Shown here piece after piece: positions 87-6,987 of a DNA stretch of 7,105 nucleotides. The stretch is from Propionibacteriaceae bacterium. Its GTDB lineage: Bacteria; Actinomycetota; Actinomycetes; Propionibacteriales; Propionibacteriaceae. Below the pieces are notes generated by a model. It was not told the origin of the DNA, did not search any database, and worked only from the letters and a program-made list of their open reading frames with translations. Made by a program: the position numbers and the translations under genes. Position 1 is the first letter of the stretch, and every line of letters starts with the position of its first letter. The DNA lies in NCBI GenBank assembly GCA_031256725.1, contig JAIRQE010000017.1:1-7105 (forward strand), written 5' to 3'.

Positions 87-686
87 CTAGGAGTTCAGGA
101 CTCGTCGTCCTTCAAAGGCTCGCCCAAGAGTAATCTCGTCGGCATATTCGAGGTCCCCTCCCACTGGCAACCCTGAGGCGAGACGGGAAATCTGGAGATC
201 CAGGGAGGCCAGCAACCGAGCAAGATAGGTCGCTGTCACCTCACCCTCGGTATTAGGGTTGGTCGCCAAGATGATTTCGGTGACTGTACCGTCTTCCAGA
301 CGATGAACCAGTTCGCGGATATGGAGGTCGGCTGGGCCACGGTTGTCGATGGGAGAGATGGATCCTCCAAGGACGTGGTAGACCCCTCGGAATTCTCGGG
401 TACGTTCAATGGCAACAATATCCTTGGATTCCTCAACCACACAGATCTTGGTACGATCCCGGCGCGAGTCCCTACAAATCCGGCAGACCTCATCTTCGGT
501 TGCATTGAAACAGGTCTGACAGAATTTTACTGTTTCCTTGGCCCGAATAATCGCGTTGGCTAGGGATTTCACGTCCTCAATCTCGGAGTCCAACAGGAAG
601 AAGGCGATGCGTTGAGCACTCTTGGGTCCTACTCCAGGTAGGCGGCTCAGTTCAGCAATGAGGTCTTGGATGGGGCCGTCGTACAT
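87..686 (-). CDS. recR: Recombination protein RecR
   Basis: 199-aa ORF. It has an N-terminal helix-hairpin-helix ([14 protein letters not shown]), a C4 zinc finger (CQTC...CRIC) and a Toprim-type core ([27 protein letters not shown]). The ATG at 686-684 overlaps the dnaX stop by 1 nt (TAATG on the minus strand). Confidence 0.95.
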
Positions 687-2662
687 TAACTCTTCTTTCG
701 CGATTCCTCGGAAACCAACTCAGCATCGAACATCTCTATGACTAACTCAGATGCTTCATCAATGGGGTTCTCAACGATGTCGTCATCGTCACTGGGAGCG
801 TCACCGGATGCATCCGGGGGATTCGGAACCACTGCCAATGCCGGAGCCTTGTGGCCCGACCCAGCCATGGGTTGTACCCCTTCAGAACTAGTGGCCAAAG
901 ACAGGATTGCTGTACCCTCATCGGGAATCGCTTCAGACTCCAACCGGGCTCGAATCTGGATCGTCGCACCCATCTCTGTGGATATCGCCTGTGCGAGGCA
1001 ATCATCCCCACCAGAGCGGTTGAAGTTATCCCGTGGGCCCGCATCAGTGAAGGTTACCCACAGGACCCTCTCCCGGATCTCAAGATCTTTGGTGTACTGG
1101 TTGAGGATCATCCACACATAGCGGCGGATCTCGGAGGTTCGCGAAAGAATCCTCGGCCAGGCTTGACGAATCCATTCAGTGGACAGATCCGTGGGTGGGG
1201 TCGCAGGTTTGGGTGGGGATGGCGGATCCTCCACAACAGGCTTGGGCTCAGCGGACTTGGGCTCAGCGGACTTGGGTGGAGCCTTGGGCGGCTGGGGGTC
1301 CGCCGCTGGCTGACTGGCCTCACGCAAAGACTGGGGTACAGAGCGTACTGGCGGTGCAGGCTCAGGTGGAACAGGAGCCTCACGTACAGGTCCACTTGGC
1401 GTGAAGCCCTTTTCCAGCTTCTCCAAGCGGGCAATGATTCCACGTTCACCAGCGTCGGCTGCAGGCAAAAGAATCCGGGCACACATGAGTTCCAACTGCA
1501 AGCGGGGGGCGGTCGTACCCCTCATGCCTACGAGCCCAGCAGCCAAAACCTCGGCAGCCCTCGTCAGGGAACCGATCCCGATTTCCTTGGCCTGGTGACG
1601 ATAACGTTCCCCTTGGTCATCGGGTACATCAAGGAGCCCAGTCGACAAAGCATCAGGGACAGCAGCGACGATCACCAGGTCACGGAACCGAGTCAGAAGA
1701 TCCTCAGTGAAACGACGAGGGTCCTGGCCCGCCTCGATGACGCGATCTACATTAGCGAAAACCTCAGCAGAGTCACCAGCAGCGATGGCATCCACCACCC
1801 CATCCAAGAGGGAATCCGGTGTGTAGCCGAGAAGGGCAGCTGCATGATCGTACCCAACCCCAGAGTCAGGTGAACCACCTATGAGTTGGTCCAAAACAGA
1901 TAGTGCATCTCGGACAGAACCAGATCCTGCTCGTACCACCATTGGAATCACACCGGACTCAACACTCACGCCCTCCTCCTCGCAGATCTGGGTGAGGAAG
2001 GTGGTCATCGTCTTGGGAGGAATCAGACGGAACGGATAGTGGTGGGTCCTGGAACGGATCGTACCAATGACCTTGTCAGGCTCGGTTGTCGCAAAGATGA
2101 ACTTCACATGGGGCGGAGGCTCCTCAACCAACTTCAGCAGAGCATTAAACCCCGCTGAGGTGACCATATGGGCCTCATCAACAATATAGACACGGTAGCG
2201 GGATCGTACAGGTGCATAGAAAGCGCGCTCTCGCAAGTCGCGAGCATCATCAACGCCACCGTGACTTGCAGCGTCGATCTCCAAAACATCTATCGAGCCT
2301 GGACCACCGCGAGCAAGATCTGTACATGAGTGGCAGACCCCACAGGGTTCAGGGGTTGGCCCCTTTTCACAGTTCAACGACCGGGCGAGGATTCGCGCTG
2401 AGGAGGTCTTGCCGCAACCCCTCGGCCCCGAGAAGAGGTACGCATGGGTGACGCGATTATTCGAAAGGGCTCTTTTCAACGGAGTCGTCACATGCTCTTG
2501 ACCAATAACTTCGCCAAAGACTTCCGGACGATAGCGACGGTACAAAGCCAAAGGAGCATCAGTGCTGACAGGGCTCGACACTGGCGGGTCTGCAAACAGA
2601 CTCGGACCATCTTGAGCAAAGAATTCCGGCCCACCATCAAGTTCTTCAAGCTGCGCATCCAT
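686..2662 (-). CDS. dnaX: DNA polymerase III subunit gamma/tau (DnaX)
   Basis: 658-aa ORF. It has Walker [10 protein letters not shown], a Zn module [16 protein letters not shown], Walker B YIVDEAHM and a sensor SRT. A Pro/Lys-rich low-complexity linker and a C-terminal tau-like region follow. About 38 aa of N-terminal extension precede the usual ALYRRYRP motif. Confidence 0.95.
1241..1294 (-). repeat. In-frame tandem repeat inside the dnaX linker
   Basis: CTTGGGCTCAGCGGA is repeated perfectly at 1241-1255 and 1256-1270. Two degenerate 12-nt units starting CTTGGG follow, at 1271 and 1283. On the minus strand this encodes ..[13 protein letters not shown]... Confidence 0.8.
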
Positions 2663-2914: not shown

Positions 2915-3688
2915 ATGGTAGACCCAACACCGCGTTCATTAGATTATGGCATGCGATTTGAAGGAAAGACAGCTGTCGTCACTGGTGCCGGATCAGGCAT
3001 TGGCTTGGCCACAGCCGAGATCCTCATCCAAGACGGCGGGCGTGTCTTCGCCGTCGACCTCATGGAGGATCGTCTTGCCGAAGCCCAGGAACGCCTCGGC
3101 GAGAATTACATCCCGATTGCTATCGACATCACCCGTCCTGAGGCTGCCGCACACATCGTACAAAAGGCCGACTTCAAGATCAATATCCTCGTCAACAATG
3201 CAGGGATCATGGACGGATTCCTGCCCATCGTTGAGCTTGATGATGAGACCTGGGAGAGTGTCATGGGTGTCAATATCACGGCCATGATGAGGCTGTGTCG
3301 AGCCACGATCCCTCACATGCTCCAGGCTGGTTCTGGCGCTATCGTCAATGTATCCTCGGAAGCTAGTTTGCGTACCTGTGCAGGGGTCGCCTACACAGTC
3401 TCCAAGCATGCCGTCAACGGTTTAACCAAACACATCGCTGCCCTCTATGACAAGGCTGGGATTCGCTGTAACGCGGTTGCCCCTGGTGCAGTGAAGACTA
3501 ATGTGGGTGGCAATTTCCGCTCCGAGTTGGCTGCGAAGCGTTTGGGTCCGATTATGGCTGCGACTGCCCCTGAGATGGCTGAGCCCGAATTGCTTGCCCG
3601 TGCAATCTGCTTCCTGGCTGACGACCATGGTGCAAAGTACATCAATGGTGTGATCCTCCCAGTCGATAACGGCTGGTCTGTCGTTTGA
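2915..3688 (+). CDS. Short-chain dehydrogenase/reductase (SDR) family NAD(P)-dependent oxidoreductase; substrate unknown
   Basis: Classical SDR motifs are present: TGAGSGIG (TGxxxGxG), NNAG, and catalytic Ser (VSSEAS) plus YTVSK (YxxxK). The ORF track opens at 2828, but ATG 2915 has AGGA 6 nt upstream. ATG 2951 (MRFEGKTAVVTGA) is an alternative start. Confidence 0.85.
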   Translation: MVDPTPRSLDYGMRFEGKTAVVTGAGSGIGLATAEILIQDGGRVFAVDLMEDRLAEAQERLGENYIPIAIDITRPEAAAHIVQKADFKINILVNNAGIMDGFLPIVELDDETWESVMGVNITAMMRLCRATIPHMLQAGSGAIVNVSSEASLRTCAGVAYTVSKHAVNGLTKHIAALYDKAGIRCNAVAPGAVKTNVGGNFRSELAAKRLGPIMAATAPEMAEPELLARAICFLADDHGAKYINGVILPVDNGWSVV

Positions 3689-3716: not shown

Positions 3717-4253
3717 CTAGCTCCTCACTGCGTGATCCCCAAGATCCTCACGTGCGGATTCTCGCGCGAGAAGGCTTTGCTTGATTCCAAGGCCGTACCT
3801 GAAACCTCCTAGGCTTCCGTCTGCCCTGAGAACACGATGACAGGGTACGAACAATGCAACTGCGTTGTTTGCACATGCGCTGGCTGCTGCTCGTACAGCC
3901 CTAGGATTCCCCGCCCGCTCAGCGAGTTGGGTGTACGAAATGCGCTGGGCTGGTTGTACCTCATGTAAGGCTTGCCAAGCGCTGAGCTGGAAGGTACCTC
4001 CGTGCTGAAGAACAGGCACCTTACGAAGGAGCCCGAACTCACCCATGTAATAGGCGGCAACGGCATCCAGGGCCAAGGACAGGATTGCGGACTCATCAGG
4101 CCTGATCACTGTCGGGCATAAAGTGGAGTGGATCAGTGACTTCAACTCGTCTAGGTTCTCCGTCCAACCGGAGGCGAGAACTCCGTTGGTGGTGGTGAAG
4201 ATACTAAAAGGCCCGTCAGGGGTGGTACACGTGTGAGTATGGGCTTCCATCAT
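3717..4253 (-). CDS. ogt: Methylated-DNA--protein-cysteine methyltransferase (Ogt/MGMT family)
   Basis: 178-aa ORF. The C-terminal DNA-binding domain carries the diagnostic active-site motif VPCHRV and a helix-turn-helix region (ISYTQLAERAGNPRAVRAAASACANN). There are two adjacent ATGs (4253 and 4250). GGAG lies 5 nt upstream of the second. Confidence 0.9.
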   Translation of the reverse strand: MMEAHTHTCTTPDGPFSIFTTTNGVLASGWTENLDELKSLIHSTLCPTVIRPDESAILSLALDAVAAYYMGEFGLLRKVPVLQHGGTFQLSAWQALHEVQPAQRISYTQLAERAGNPRAVRAAASACANNAVALFVPCHRVLRADGSLGGFRYGLGIKQSLLARESAREDLGDHAVRS

Positions 4254-4292
4254 TGCTCCAATCCCCGAATCCTGGTGATGAGTCTACGCCCT

Positions 4293-4298
4293 TATATA
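4293..4298 (-). promoter_or_regulatory. -10-like TATATA in the AT-rich trough upstream of ogt
   Basis: The stretch at about 4280-4380 is the most AT-rich part of the window by eye. TATATA sits about 40 nt upstream of the ogt start and is flanked by two AAATGCA repeats (4300-4306 and 4321-4327). The hexamer reads similarly on both strands. Confidence 0.3.
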
Positions 4299-4369
4299 GA
4301 AATGCACATTTTCGTGGATAAAATGCAAGTTTCTTCTTCTCCCAGTATTTGATCATTTAGGGACCATTG

Positions 4370-4714
4370 CTTGAAAATAGATGAGGTGGCAGGTAGGCTT
4401 CCTGGTGTAACGGACCATCCTTGCGGGGAGCATGGAGTCCTTATCATGGTGAGGATCAAACGGGGTTTGTACCTGCACCATCACTAGTTGTGCATGTGTT
4501 GTACATGTGTAAGAGCAATGCTGGGGTAGGCATCTGCTCATCATGGTCACGGGGGAGTGATCCGTGGATATTCCGTAGAAACAGTTGAAGTCCTATGCCC
4601 TCATAAGGCTGAGGACTTGTTGTCATCCCGTGATGTCCCAAGGTTCAGCCCAGAGGCACCGTGATGTCTATGAGTTTTCTCAAGAGTTTCACTGAATATC
4701 GCTGATTGCTTTTC
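4370..4714 (+). repeat. Module 1 of tandem noncoding repeat (degenerate copy)
   Basis: TGAAAATAGAT (4372-4382) resembles TGAATAGAT at the start of module 2. CAAACGGGGTTTGT (4457-4470) resembles the module-3 hairpin CAAACGG..CCGTTTGT with its apex missing. ATCATGG occurs at 4443 and 4540. The region is rich in hairpins, but similarity to modules 2 and 3 is weak. Confidence 0.3.
4628..4668 (+). repeat. Direct repeat CCGTGATGTC x2, period 31 nt
   Basis: Perfect 10-mers at 4628-4637 and 4659-4668 in the noncoding gap. Confidence 0.6.
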
Positions 4715-4804
4715 CTGGCGTGAATAGATCAGTAATCATGGGCACACAGTTACTGAGTACTAAGAACTCAACTGCAGAACTACACATGGATGTACCGTGG
4801 GCTG

Positions 4805-4900
4805 GCCATCACCCCTCCCCCAAAATACGGTGACTGGCTCGCGGTCTGGCGACACTCGTGTCGTCAATGGCGGTGGGGGTGGCTAGCGCCCCTACCGCTA
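4805..4900 (+). ncRNA. Candidate structured RNA core of module 2 (three hairpins: C-rich loop, tetraloop, GC hairpin)
   Basis: H1 pairs GCCATCAC (4805-4812) with GTGA-c-TGGC (4830-4838) and has the 17-nt loop CCCTCCCCCAAAATACG. H2 (4849-4864) is a 6-bp stem with a CUCG loop. H3 (4868-4900) pairs GCGGTGGGGG with CCCCTACCGC, including a G4875.U4893 pair that is only allowed on the plus strand. No promoter or 3' end has been established. Confidence 0.3.
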
Positions 4901-4934
4901 ATTACTGCAATTCCTATCGGGGGGTGTCAAGGGA

Positions 4935-4960
4935 GTGTCAGAGGACGTATCTCTTGACAC
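4935..4960. repeat. Palindromic REP-like element, copy B (inverted relative to A and C)
   Basis: Sequence is GTGTCAGAGGACGTATCTCTTGACAC. Its core (4936-4959) is complementary to copy C at 22 of 24 positions. Confidence 0.65.
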
Positions 4961-4990
4961 GTCTTGACCATGTACCACTCCTTCATCAAA

Positions 4991-5014
4991 TGTCAAGAGA
5001 TACGTCTCCTGACA
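4991..5014. repeat. Palindromic REP-like element, copy C
   Basis: TGTCAAGAGATACGTCTCCTGACA is self-complementary: TGTCA pairs with TGACA and GAGA with TCTC, around a central TACG. Together with copy B it forms an inverted pair separated by 30 nt. Confidence 0.65.
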
Positions 5015-5141
5015 ATCGTCCCTGACTCTCAAGGAAGAATGGTTGCTACGTGAGTTCTCTCACGATTATCGGCACTTTGGTCGGACTAGGGGAAACGTTG
5101 CGCTGGAATAGTTGCATAAGTGATTGATGGCCAACAATCAC

Positions 5142-5182
5142 TGGGGAAGCAGGAGAAAGACTGTGTTGTCGTGGGGAAGCAG
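5142..5182 (+). repeat. Direct repeat TGGGGAAGCAG x2, period 30 nt
   Basis: Perfect 11-mers at 5142-5152 and 5172-5182. GGGGAAG is complementary to the CTTCCCC of the module-3 C-run (5218-5224). Confidence 0.6.
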
Positions 5183-5203
5183 CAGTACACAATACGTACC
5201 GCG

Positions 5204-5311
5204 ATCTGCCGTCATACTTCCCCCCAAAGATAGCAGATGGTGGTCAGGTGGCCTACGGCTTGCCGTAGTGTCGCTTCGCAAACGGTGGGGTGCTTTAGCC
5301 CCCACCGTTTG
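5204..5311 (+). ncRNA. Candidate structured RNA core of module 3 (paralogous three-hairpin unit)
   Basis: H1 pairs ATCTGC (5204-5209) with GCAGAT (5233-5238) and has the 23-nt loop CGTCATACTTCCCCCCAAAGATA. H2 (5253-5268) pairs CTACGG with CCGTAG around a CUUG tetraloop. H3 (5279-5311) is a perfect 12-bp stem, CAAACGGTGGGG with CCCCACCGTTTG, with a 9-nt loop. Confidence 0.3.
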
Positions 5312-5431
5312 TCTGCCCCCATCAAACCAAGGAATTGGGAAAGGTTCCTTGAAAAGCTCAGGTAATGTGGCAGAACCGTGCAAGCAAGGGGGCATCCTTG
5401 CAAGGATGTGGCGACACGGTACACCGGGGGG

Positions 5432-5459
5432 TGAAGGAGTTCATCACCGAACTCCTTCA
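5432..5459 (+). terminator. Perfect 11-bp hairpin without a U tract (possible I-shaped terminator or leader element)
   Basis: TGAAGGAGTTC (5432-5442) pairs perfectly with GAACTCCTTCA (5449-5459) around the 6-nt loop ATCACC. TTCAAGTGATTG follows rather than a U run. The hairpin lies 120 nt upstream of the regulator start. Confidence 0.3.
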
Positions 5460-5578
5460 TTCAAGTGATTGAACTCAGCGATGGGAGAATCATGGCAACC
5501 ACCGGTTGTCGGGTCGGTGTGACCCCAACGCACGGACCTTCCGTGACAGAAGGCTGGCTTCGTGAATCGGAGGCAGAG

Positions 5579-6175
5579 ATGATCTCTGTACTCCTTGTCG
5601 AAAGCCATGCAGCAGTACGCGATGCCTTCGCGACTATGTTTAATATGCAAGAAGACTTCACTGTTGTGGCGACTGCGTCGTCTGTGCGTGAAGCCATCAA
5701 CTTGGCTTGGGTACACCAGCCTGATATTGCACTGATCGACATGCAGTTACCCAATGATTCGGGTTTCCACATGATCGAGCAGTTGCGTTCCTCTGTACCC
5801 CATTGCCGATGCGTGTTACTGACATCCAACGACCTTCAAGGGTACCGTTGTCGCGCCTATGAGTACGGGGCCTGGGCCTACCTCAGCAAAGAACTTTCTT
5901 TTGCTGACATTGTGGGCGCCCTAGAGCAGGTACACGATGGCAAACGTCTCATAGATCCACGAGTGATCTGTAGGGAGAATCATTCCCCCTTGACAAATCG
6001 AGAAACCGACGTTTTGAGAATGGTTGCGAGGATGGGTACCACTGCGGAGATCTCCAAGGTCATGCATTTGAGCCCTGGTACTATCAACAACTACGTCTCC
6101 TCGATCATGTCCAAGTTGGGTGCATCCAACAGGGTACAAGCGTTGATCATCGCTAGGGAAAACGGCTGGATTTAG
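5579..6175 (+). CDS. NarL/LuxR-family response regulator (receiver + LuxR-type HTH), orphan in this window
   Basis: The receiver domain begins MISVLLVESH, with D54 (ALIDMQLP), T82 (LLTS) and K104 (YLSKE). The C-terminal LuxR HTH reads LTNRETDVLRMVARMGTTAEISKVMHLSPGTINNYVSSIMSKLG. The start was chosen at ATG 5579 because GGAGG (5569-5573) lies 5 nt upstream. The ORF stays open back to 5465, and an in-frame ATG at 5492 is an alternative start. Confidence 0.85.
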   Translation: MISVLLVESHAAVRDAFATMFNMQEDFTVVATASSVREAINLAWVHQPDIALIDMQLPNDSGFHMIEQLRSSVPHCRCVLLTSNDLQGYRCRAYEYGAWAYLSKELSFADIVGALEQVHDGKRLIDPRVICRENHSPLTNRETDVLRMVARMGTTAEISKVMHLSPGTINNYVSSIMSKLGASNRVQALIIARENGWI

Positions 6176-6375: not shown

Positions 6376-6987
6376 TTAAAAGCGAGTCCAGGTGATGGCT
6401 AGCAGGAGTACTGTCGCTGCTGGGTAGGTGATGGCTAGGGTCAGATGTACCCACTGCTTGGTGATCGCCCACTGTCTAAGGTAAACAATGATGCTGGCAA
6501 TAAGCAGGGCAACCCCTATTCCGGCGACCGGCCAGGGTGGGAGTTCAGCGACTGGTTGTTGGAAGAGACTGATGGGTGTGAGAATCAACCCCATGGTGAG
6601 GAACCCCAGGAGCATGGGCAGTACCGTTCCACGACCGACCAGGCCAAGAAAACGGTCTGTTTGAACCCCGAGGAGTACAAGGATCCCCACCACGACGATG
6701 ACGCTGATCAGGAGCCCCGATGCCACCTCGATCTGCACTCCGTCGCGCAGGGGCCGTACCGCCCACAAGCACAAAGACATCCCCAGGAAGCCAAGAATGG
6801 CCGGGAGAACAGCTGGGATCAGACCTAGTGTCGGGGGTTCCTGATCTGTGGAATCTGCGTATCCTTCATCATGAGCTACATCGTCCGATGCCTGAGAAGA
6901 ATCCCGGTTGTGAGGCTCGGATTCTGGGCTGTGGTACTCGCTCATGCCAATCAGTGTATCCAACCTTGGTATGTACCCCTTGTTCAA
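6376..6987 (-). CDS. Hypothetical polytopic membrane protein (acidic N-terminus, about 5 TM segments)
   Basis: 203-aa ORF with five hydrophobic stretches of about 20 aa (e.g. LIPAVLPAILGFLGMSLCLWAV, LLISVIVVVGILVLLGV). I recognise no family motif. The track start at 6987 is TTG. ATG at 6945 (MSEYHSPE) is an alternative and sits 7 nt downstream of a TACACT -10-like hexamer. Confidence 0.6.
   Translation of the reverse strand: MNKGYIPRLDTLIGMSEYHSPESEPHNRDSSQASDDVAHDEGYADSTDQEPPTLGLIPAVLPAILGFLGMSLCLWAVRPLRDGVQIEVASGLLISVIVVVGILVLLGVQTDRFLGLVGRGTVLPMLLGFLTMGLILTPISLFQQPVAELPPWPVAGIGVALLIASIIVYLRQWAITKQWVHLTLAITYPAATVLLLAITWTRF

Follow-up and report, generated by a model that had tools for sequence, protein, structure and literature searches.

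Among described RNA families, 6C (Rfam RF01066; B11 in Mycobacterium tuberculosis) is the closest to the RNA element analysed here, which occurs in two tandem copies, A and B, in the 1.3-kb gap between ogt and the gene for a NarL/LuxR-family response regulator on a contig from a Propionibacteriaceae bacterium (JAIRQE010000017.1). The complete metagenomic contig of 7105 bp was analysed and is referred to as the window. Like the element in the window, 6C is actinobacterial, small and equipped with an unpaired C-rich hairpin loop. It is defined by at least six C residues in each of two loops in a structure of about 80 nt (PMC5014011). The loops of 6C bind G-rich ribosome-binding sites without a chaperone, and unpaired C-rich stretches are common in the small RNAs (sRNAs) of high-GC Gram-positive bacteria (PMC6486639). 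In contrast to 6C, the new RNA is 115-130 nt long and has a single C-rich loop, located in the first of its three helices (P1), an ordinary loop in the second (P2) and a third hairpin (P3) that is conserved in sequence; it is also found in tandem copies and is tied to a two-component system. We know of no link between 6C and a two-component system. The 6C Rfam model gave no match at E <= 10 in the window or in the gap alone, and none at E <= 5 in 15 related loci. Membership in 6C was rejected on this result, on the single C-rich loop and on the length of about 120 nt.

RsaE/RoxS of the Firmicutes and sX13 of Xanthomonas consist of several hairpins and end in a terminator hairpin; binding of their C-rich loops to G-rich motifs close to start codons has been proposed or demonstrated. 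The new RNA resembles them in its hairpins, its C-rich loop and its terminal hairpin, whereas they belong to other phyla and have C-rich motifs in two or three of their loops; neither the sequences nor the covariance models revealed any similarity between them and the new RNA. By analogy, the new RNA probably works like 6C, RsaE/RoxS or sX13. An sRNA gene also lies beside a response-regulator gene in the qrr1-luxO locus of Vibrio and the RNAIII-agr locus of Staphylococcus, where the genes are divergent and a regulatory link has been demonstrated. The synteny with a response regulator is alike in our locus, whereas the genes are co-directional and a regulatory link would be putative.

The comparisons presented below indicate with high confidence that the element belongs to a family of structured RNAs encoded on the plus strand, and they set this family apart as new from the families in Rfam, 6C included. 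We lean towards the reading that the gap contains two tandem sRNA genes of an undescribed family of the C-rich-loop kind, the copies of which would be free-standing sRNAs that act in trans. With about 30 covarying pairs, this adds a well-supported structured RNA family to a phylum with few understood sRNAs. The hosts are gut bacteria of a narrow uncultured clade, represented solely by metagenomes. Three traits of the family are unusual: it has a single long loop resembling the anti-Shine-Dalgarno sequence, its paralogues are arranged in tandem, and it is strictly syntenic with a two-component system from which the kinase was later lost. Jointly, these traits make up a concrete, testable case of how an sRNA may be wired to a response regulator. 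With the covariance models, the genomes of the clade can be annotated and the family can be looked for outside it.

Structure and conservation of the RNA element

The features of the two copies were assigned from covariance-model matches and minimum free energy (MFE) folds and, for copy A, from its orthologue in the closest relative, L027:

4781-4789, plus strand: conserved flank on the 5' side of copy A, TACACAUGG
4790-4904, plus strand: RNA copy A
4794-4845, in copy A: P1, with the unpaired apical loop CCUCCCCCAAAAUAC at 4814-4828
4847-4866, in copy A: P2
4868-4900, plus strand: P3 of copy A, a GC hairpin with the loop GCUAG
5186-5193, plus strand: counterpart flank on the 5' side of copy B, TACACAAU
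5194-5314, plus strand: RNA copy B
5198-5244, in copy B: P1, with the unpaired loop AUACUUCCCCCCAAA at 5214-5228
5246-5276, in copy B: P2
5278-5312, plus strand: P3 of copy B, AAACGGUGGGG..CCCCACCGUUU, followed by the U-rich tail UUUGUCU

From 5' to 3', each unit contains the conserved start AUGURCC, a long stem, the C-rich loop, a small hairpin and the GC-rich hairpin CGGUGGGG...CCCCACCG. The long stem, P1, carries an unpaired loop of 15-19 nt with the family consensus CCCUCCCCCCC-AAA, which contains the anti-Shine-Dalgarno core CCUCC and is an extended look-alike of the anti-Shine-Dalgarno sequence. This loop is C-rich in all copies and unpaired in the MFE structures of both copies in the window. 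P2 is a short hairpin with loops that read like GAGUGAAAACGC and are not C-rich. P3 is a very stable GC-rich hairpin of 13 bp in all copies, with the near-invariant sequence CGGUGGGG/CCCCACCG, and it forms in both the MFE and the centroid structures of the window copies.

Twenty-five distinct copies of 115-130 nt were aligned. RNAalifold recovered three helices with 35 pairs, 28 of which showed compensatory double changes. Standard pairs accounted for 91.2% of the cells, as compared to 80.2% in shuffled alignments, and none of 500 shuffles reached the alignment in any of five measures. Sliding the 3' partners by 1-3 columns reduced the pairing to 34-55%. An alignment free of window sequences, including two copies first found by the covariance model, was 90.4% paired, with double changes in 31 of the 36 pairs. 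The 25-copy alignment contained 96 G.U cells versus 29 A.C cells, an excess that points to an RNA read from the plus strand. The folding energies were also lower relative to shuffled sequence on this strand, with an MFE of -61.5 kcal/mol for copy A (z = -4.9; reverse complement z = -1.2) and of -63.1 kcal/mol for copy B (z = -6.8; reverse complement z = -3.0). An earlier description made from the window sequence only (the preliminary description) had already proposed a plus-strand transcript from the G.U pairs in several stems, and the alignment bears this out.

Two covariance models were used, R1, built from the seed alignment and run with the filters off, and R2, built without any window sequence to avoid circularity. 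R1 matched the window only at 4790-4904 (86.5 bits) and 5194-5314 (69.5 bits), both on the plus strand, while R2 scored 73.9 bits for copy A and 52.2 bits for copy B. The E-values of the window copies ranged from 1e-11 to 1e-17. A scan against Rfam 15 gave no credible match, in agreement with the preliminary description, which had recognized no known RNA family; for the window, for the gap searched separately and for 15 related loci, the scans returned only chance matches resembling microRNAs or small nucleolar RNAs, and genes for tRNA-Ile.

In a blastn comparison of the gap with L027, positions 4778-4902 and 5271-5578 aligned, while no similarity was found for 4254-4777 and 4903-5270. Copy A is thus embedded in spacer that does not align, and it is 71-72% identical to its orthologue L027_A, like the coding genes. 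Copies A and B of the window are 60% identical to each other and are, as judged from their sequences, anciently duplicated paralogues in tandem. Clustering by identity resolved the orthology of A and B copies only weakly. Several orthologues of copy A (L011 252-379, L016 2089-2218, L030 1561-1687, L036 1565-1693) have the loop CCCCCC(C)AGGGGGG, in which the C-run can pair with the adjacent G-run and the seed would accordingly be hidden, a feature by which A and B copies may differ in function.

The preliminary description had divided the gap into tandem modules of about 400 nt that share nine colinear blocks, with a weaker copy upstream and a partial fourth start downstream. The nine block strings are all in place, and the second and third modules are more similar to each other than expected by chance: with module boundaries chosen after looking at the sequence, the local alignment score was 26 versus 18.5 +/- 2.2 in dinucleotide shuffles (reached by 4 of 300), and the semi-global alignment had z = 7 (reached by 0 of 300). 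Three exact 10-mer pairs were seen in the gap, as compared to an estimate of about 0.8 10-mers and about 3 9-mers repeated by chance in 1.3 kb. The conserved unit is smaller than proposed, in that blocks 3-6 (4781-4900 / 5186-5311) make up the element of about 120 nt, and blocks 1-2 and 7-9 are not part of it. Blocks 1-2, the GAATAG string and a hairpin, lie upstream of the element and recur only in L001, L002 and L027, with GAATAG alone in L013. Blocks 7-9 of the third module are the G-run and hairpin of the regulator leader, which are kept in the same three loci; those of the second module are shared with no relative and consist of exact repeats of 9-10 nt, which by our estimate should arise about once by chance in 1.3 kb, and their region is interrupted by an inverted repeat at 4933-5017. 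Nor are there three or four copies. The alignment statistics and the covariance-model searches with filters off recovered only two, since the weaker copy at 4372-4470 ("module 1") gave alignment z-scores of -1.0 and 0.7 and no covariance-model match, and the fourth start at 5487-5505, likewise without a match, corresponds to the conserved Shine-Dalgarno sequence and ATG of a short upstream frame.

The covariation also bears on the possibility that the similarity arises from a repeat acting at the DNA level, such as a protein-binding site or a repetitive extragenic palindromic (REP)-like or miniature inverted-repeat transposable element (MITE)-like sequence, from decayed coding sequence of a lost histidine kinase, or from chance. 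The gap does hold a true small palindromic dispersed repeat (4936-5014 and 31-55), and the lineage did lose a kinase at this position. Against this explanation stand the compensatory changes in 28-31 pairs, the strand-asymmetric excess of G.U pairs and the low E-values of the covariance-model matches. Furthermore, the indels behind the length differences between copies do not come in multiples of three, nor is the 5' "ATG" conserved. Searches with the kinases of L017 and L019 (tblastn) gave nothing in the gap at E <= 10, the only match in the window being 39 aa at 2841-2945 (E = 0.015), and none of the nine open reading frames (ORFs) in the gap matched Pfam at E <= 1, which together argue that the gap is not a decayed kinase gene. 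A frame-shifted kinase or other gene, which the preliminary description had named as an outcome that would overturn its reading, was not recovered across the gap; two further outcomes that it had named, a self-alignment no better than shuffled sequence and a lack of the blocks in syntenic relatives, did not occur either. We consider an origin from DNA repeats, decay or chance very improbable and largely refuted, and the description of the gap as tandem sRNA genes or a modular leader, instead of spacer DNA, agrees with a structured family that shows strong covariation.

Occurrence in relatives and linkage to the two-component genes

Orthologous loci were gathered by a scan of one genome per species, a metagenome scan, a protein search and eight contig look-ups. 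This yielded about 30 loci with regulator orthologues at 55-85% identity, all of them metagenomic; in the protein comparison, 25 regulator orthologues were 59-85% identical. Two of the loci are from Propionibacteriaceae metagenome-assembled genomes with Nt197P3 bin names, as used for a set of such genomes from the guts of higher termites (PMC7024585). The gene order dnaX, dehydrogenase and sometimes ogt, followed by the gap and the regulator, is kept in the relatives, and the blocks that belong to the element are conserved along with it.

In total, 27 copies of the RNA were identified in about 19 metagenomic Propionibacteriaceae loci, and all 27 preceded an orthologue of the NarL/LuxR regulator or its kinase in the same orientation, within a search that covered the neighbourhood of the regulator gene. 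Two copies each were found in the window, L027, L009, L011, L016, L030 and L036, and a single copy in L001, L002, L007, L012, L013, L014, L018, L021, L023, L031 and L034. Beyond the seed, model R1 recovered a copy at 78 bits in L017, one at 72 bits in L020 and a degenerate one in L022. No RNA copy was found by R1 next to the more distant paralogous regulators in L024-L026.

In two loci, a kinase gene with HisKA_3/HATPase_c domains lies directly upstream of the regulator (L017 1795-2994, L019 136-1383), and in L017 the RNA element is located about 140 nt upstream of the kinase. From the arrangement in L017, the ancestral order was likely RNA, kinase and regulator, with loss of the kinase in the clade of the window. 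The regulator had been called an orphan, which holds for the window clade and not for the ancestral state, given the kinase between the RNA position and the regulator in L017 and L019. The acidic pair after beta-1 of the regulator is E-S, E-P, E-G or E-T in the loci without kinase, as compared to E-D in L017 and L019, and several orthologues, P0006, P0007, P0017 and P0018 among them, have T, S or A at the position of the phospho-acceptor Asp (IALIDMQ in the window). From its sequence, the regulator of the kinase-less loci looks phosphorylation-independent.

These changes could be taken to mean that the element acts by binding a protein, as a decoy or scaffold for the adjacent regulator or another RNA-binding protein. 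The invariant sequence of P3, the conserved loop and the strict co-occurrence with the regulator would fit such a role, as would the loss of the acidic-pocket Asp from the kinase-less regulators and of the phospho-acceptor Asp from several of them. However, GerE/LuxR domains bind DNA, and the regulator has no RNA-binding domain; the RNA is also found in L017 beside a normal kinase-regulator pair. Overall, we think protein binding quite unlikely as the mode of action.

A conserved leader, distinct from the RNA copies, occupies the last 230 nt of the gap and includes a candidate promoter and an upstream ORF. The following features were identified in the leader and the regulator gene:

5348-5368, plus strand: conserved motif CTTGAAAAGCTCAGG-TAATGT, of which the last six bases (5363-5368) fit the -10 pattern TANNNT
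5425-5430, plus strand: G-run of the leader element
5432-5442 / 5449-5459, plus strand: hairpin UGAAGGAGUUC / GAACUCCUUCA, an 11-nt inverted repeat with 100% complementarity
5483-5578, plus strand: Shine-Dalgarno sequence GGGAG (5483-5487), ATG (5492) and a 29-codon frame MATTGCRV..., assigned by comparison with relatives
5511-5515 / 5521-5525, plus strand: hairpin GGGUC/GACCC inside the upstream frame
5579-6175, plus strand: NarL/LuxR-family response regulator (Pfam matches to Response_reg and GerE), the syntenic partner of the RNA family

The G-run and the GGAGG-containing hairpin (5425-5459) are kept in L001, L002 and L027 with partly compensatory changes. These three loci contain a separate upstream ORF (MTATGCRV...; L001 5915-6004, L002 5915-6004, L027 1981-2070) in another frame than the regulator, preceded by GGGAGAA and ending at a TGA within the ATGA of the regulator gene. 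GGGAGA, a start codon and an open frame to the TGA are also present in L031, L036, L021/23, L030 and L016; as the gene begins with ATGAT, it is trivial that these frames end at the same point. In the window, small indels fuse the upstream frame in frame to the regulator, which may be either real or an assembly error. The database entry of the window regulator is 227 aa long, as compared to 198 aa for the regulators of the relatives, and thus starts at the ATG at 5492. The annotated start of the regulator is corrected by this analysis.

Transcription and mode of action

The flank on the 5' side of the two copies (TACACAUGG/TACACAAU) is either a single-stranded start of the RNA or part of an unrecognized promoter. 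In most of the 27 copies, the element is preceded by a CAC(A/T) core at a distance of 4-12 nt; a loose GGGGAA motif was the only other signal upstream. A promoter of the extracytoplasmic-function sigma factor type (GGGAAC...CGT) was considered and dropped, as transcription would then begin within the covarying P1 stem. A simple terminator scan did not call P3 as a terminator.

The motif at 5348-5368 marks the point where sequence conservation with L001 and L002 begins. Of 21 loci, 17 carry it with the strict pattern CTTGA-N8-9-(G)G-TANNNT in the interval from the last P3 hairpin to the start of the two-component genes. The hexamers seen were TAATGT, TAACGT, TAAGGT, TACTCT, TAGTGT, TAATCT and TAATAT, in which T1, A2 and T6 are invariant and positions 3-5 vary. 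By comparison with mycobacterial promoters, we take TANNNT to be the -10 signature of the principal sigma factor in actinobacteria. CTTGA was rejected as the corresponding -35 element because the spacing is only 8-9 nt. From its pattern and position, the motif could be the promoter or an operator of the regulator gene. The distance from P3 to the first two-component gene varies from about 67 to 457 nt across the loci, and the spacing between copies A and B, about 180-400 nt, is not conserved and tolerates the insertion of a repeat in the window. The TANNNT motif, the variable distances and the unconserved spacers suggest that the regulator is transcribed independently, downstream of P3.

In the reading that we favour, P3 and the pyrimidine- or U-rich tail would end transcription and free each copy as an RNA of about 120 nt. 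The C-rich loop would serve as the seed, and its pairing with G-rich ribosome-binding sites in target mRNAs would prevent the initiation of translation, a step proposed by analogy to the experimentally shown action of the C-rich loops of mycobacterial 6C. The regulator would be transcribed from a separate promoter (TANNNT at 5363-5368), and its leader of 210 nt would include a coupled upstream ORF. Since the RNA gene keeps its place upstream of the two-component system or its kinase-less descendant, the RNA and the regulator are probably one regulatory module, in which either the regulator would drive the RNA promoter or the RNA would tune the G-rich leader of the regulator.

Several observations weigh against free-standing sRNAs. 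A scan with the sigma-70 consensus upstream of both copies gave no match, so that the RNAs could also originate by processing or read-through. Counted by eye, the 8 nt after P3 contain 3-6 U residues in the majority of B copies but 1-3 in the majority of A copies, the tails of which are poor in U. P3 is more invariant than a terminator needs to be, for which an sRNA model offers no explanation. The strict linkage to the regulator, within the neighbourhood that was searched, also fits a cis-acting element, and all of the sequences are metagenomic. Finally, the RNAduplex energies of loop and leader, compared with shuffled leaders across loci, had z-scores from 0.8 to -2.1 and were not significant. 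As a cis target of the C-rich loop, the regulator leader is unsupported on this ground, as the cognate duplexes were no better than the shuffled ones. The loop CUCCUCCCCC of L001 and L002 is a perfect 10-nt complement of GGGGGAGGAG in their own leader; this match may result from base composition alone.

The elements could instead be cis-acting parts of the 5' leader of the regulator gene or the kinase-regulator operon, with P3 as an attenuator terminator. A factor on the C-rich loop (a protein, a ligand, the 30S subunit or the 5' arm of P3) would then decide on read-through, and the copies would work like tandem riboswitches. The position of all 27 copies, upstream of and in the same direction as the regulator or kinase, is as expected for a leader, as is the lack of a recognized promoter before the copies. 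A competing interaction between the loop and P3 would also explain why P3 is near-invariant beyond the needs of pairing, and its 5' arm, GGUGGGG, is nearly complementary to CCCCUCC in the loop, with one U.U mismatch in sequence of low complexity. The complementarity of CUCCUCCCCC to GGGGGAGGAG points the same way, but the loop-leader pairing in general does not exceed that with shuffled leaders. Moreover, the -10-like hexamer between P3 and the gene implies an independent promoter, the gene spacing of about 67 to 457 nt and the unconserved spacers between A and B speak against a leader, and P3 forms in both MFE and centroid structures; no conserved antiterminator was noticed in the alignment, which was inspected by eye and not searched systematically. 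We regard the cis-acting leader as a serious alternative, possible rather than probable.

A variant of the latter would make the RNA the signal-input device of the two-component system. The C-rich loop, together with the GGUGGGG arm of P3, would act as a switchable attenuator or as a sensor to which a ligand or protein binds, and so control transcription of the kinase and regulator genes; the RNA would have become the sole input to the regulator in the clade that lost both the kinase and the phospho-acceptor chemistry. We find this proposal doubtful. Compared with it, free-standing sRNAs that act on G-rich ribosome-binding sites in trans are the reading we retain.

Other features of the window

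The gene order in the window is recR, dnaX, a short-chain dehydrogenase, ogt, the 1.3-kb gap, the response regulator and a membrane ORF. Apart from the RNA copies and the regulator region, the features are as follows:

31-55, no strand assigned: third arm of the palindromic repeat TGTCAAGAGATACGTCTCCTGACA, downstream of recR at the contig start
87-686, minus strand: recR
686-2662, minus strand: dnaX
about 2915-3688, plus strand: short-chain dehydrogenase
3717-4253, minus strand: ogt
4254-4777, no strand assigned: unconserved spacer of about 520 nt, including "module 1"
4936-4959 and 4991-5014, no strand assigned: core arms of the palindromic repeat TGTCAAGAGATACGTCTCCTGACA
6376-6987, minus strand: membrane ORF

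A tRNA scan of the window gave no tRNA genes. In most relatives, a tRNA gene follows the regulator at a distance of about 50-80 nt on the same strand (L006 2082-2155, L007 3646-3714, L009 3645-3718, L011 1660-1733, L021 3664-3737, and others). It is a gene for tRNA-Ile, with the anticodon read as GAU in the anticodon loop CUGAUAA. The window and L027 have the convergent membrane ORF in place of this tRNA gene.

The palindromic repeat TGTCAAGAGATACGTCTCCTGACA was identified by an inverted-repeat search and by folding. It lies between RNA copies A and B as part of a 27-nt inverted repeat that spans 4933-5017, and it folds into a long hairpin (-49.9 kcal/mol, z = -5.8). It was absent from all 36 related loci compared, which makes it a lineage-specific dispersed repeat outside the RNA family. 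It may be a MITE- or REP-like element.

The spacer at 4254-4777 had no blastn match to L027 and no covariance-model match, and its ORFs had no Pfam domain; it probably holds the promoter region of ogt. Two near-palindromic boxes, AAATGCACATTT (4300-4311) and AAATGCAAGTTT (4321-4332), have a spacing of 21 nt and lie in AT-rich sequence some 50-80 nt ahead of the ogt start, where they overlap the sole match to a sigma-70-like promoter in the gap (4297-4324, plus strand). The boxes may serve ogt as an operator or promoter region. In the unconserved part of the gap, at 4487-4510, the 11-nt sequence GTTGTRCATGT is repeated in tandem, in 2.2 copies. In dnaX, a perfect 15-nt tandem repeat at 1241-1276 (2.4 copies) encodes a repeated PKSAE motif in a proline-rich linker.

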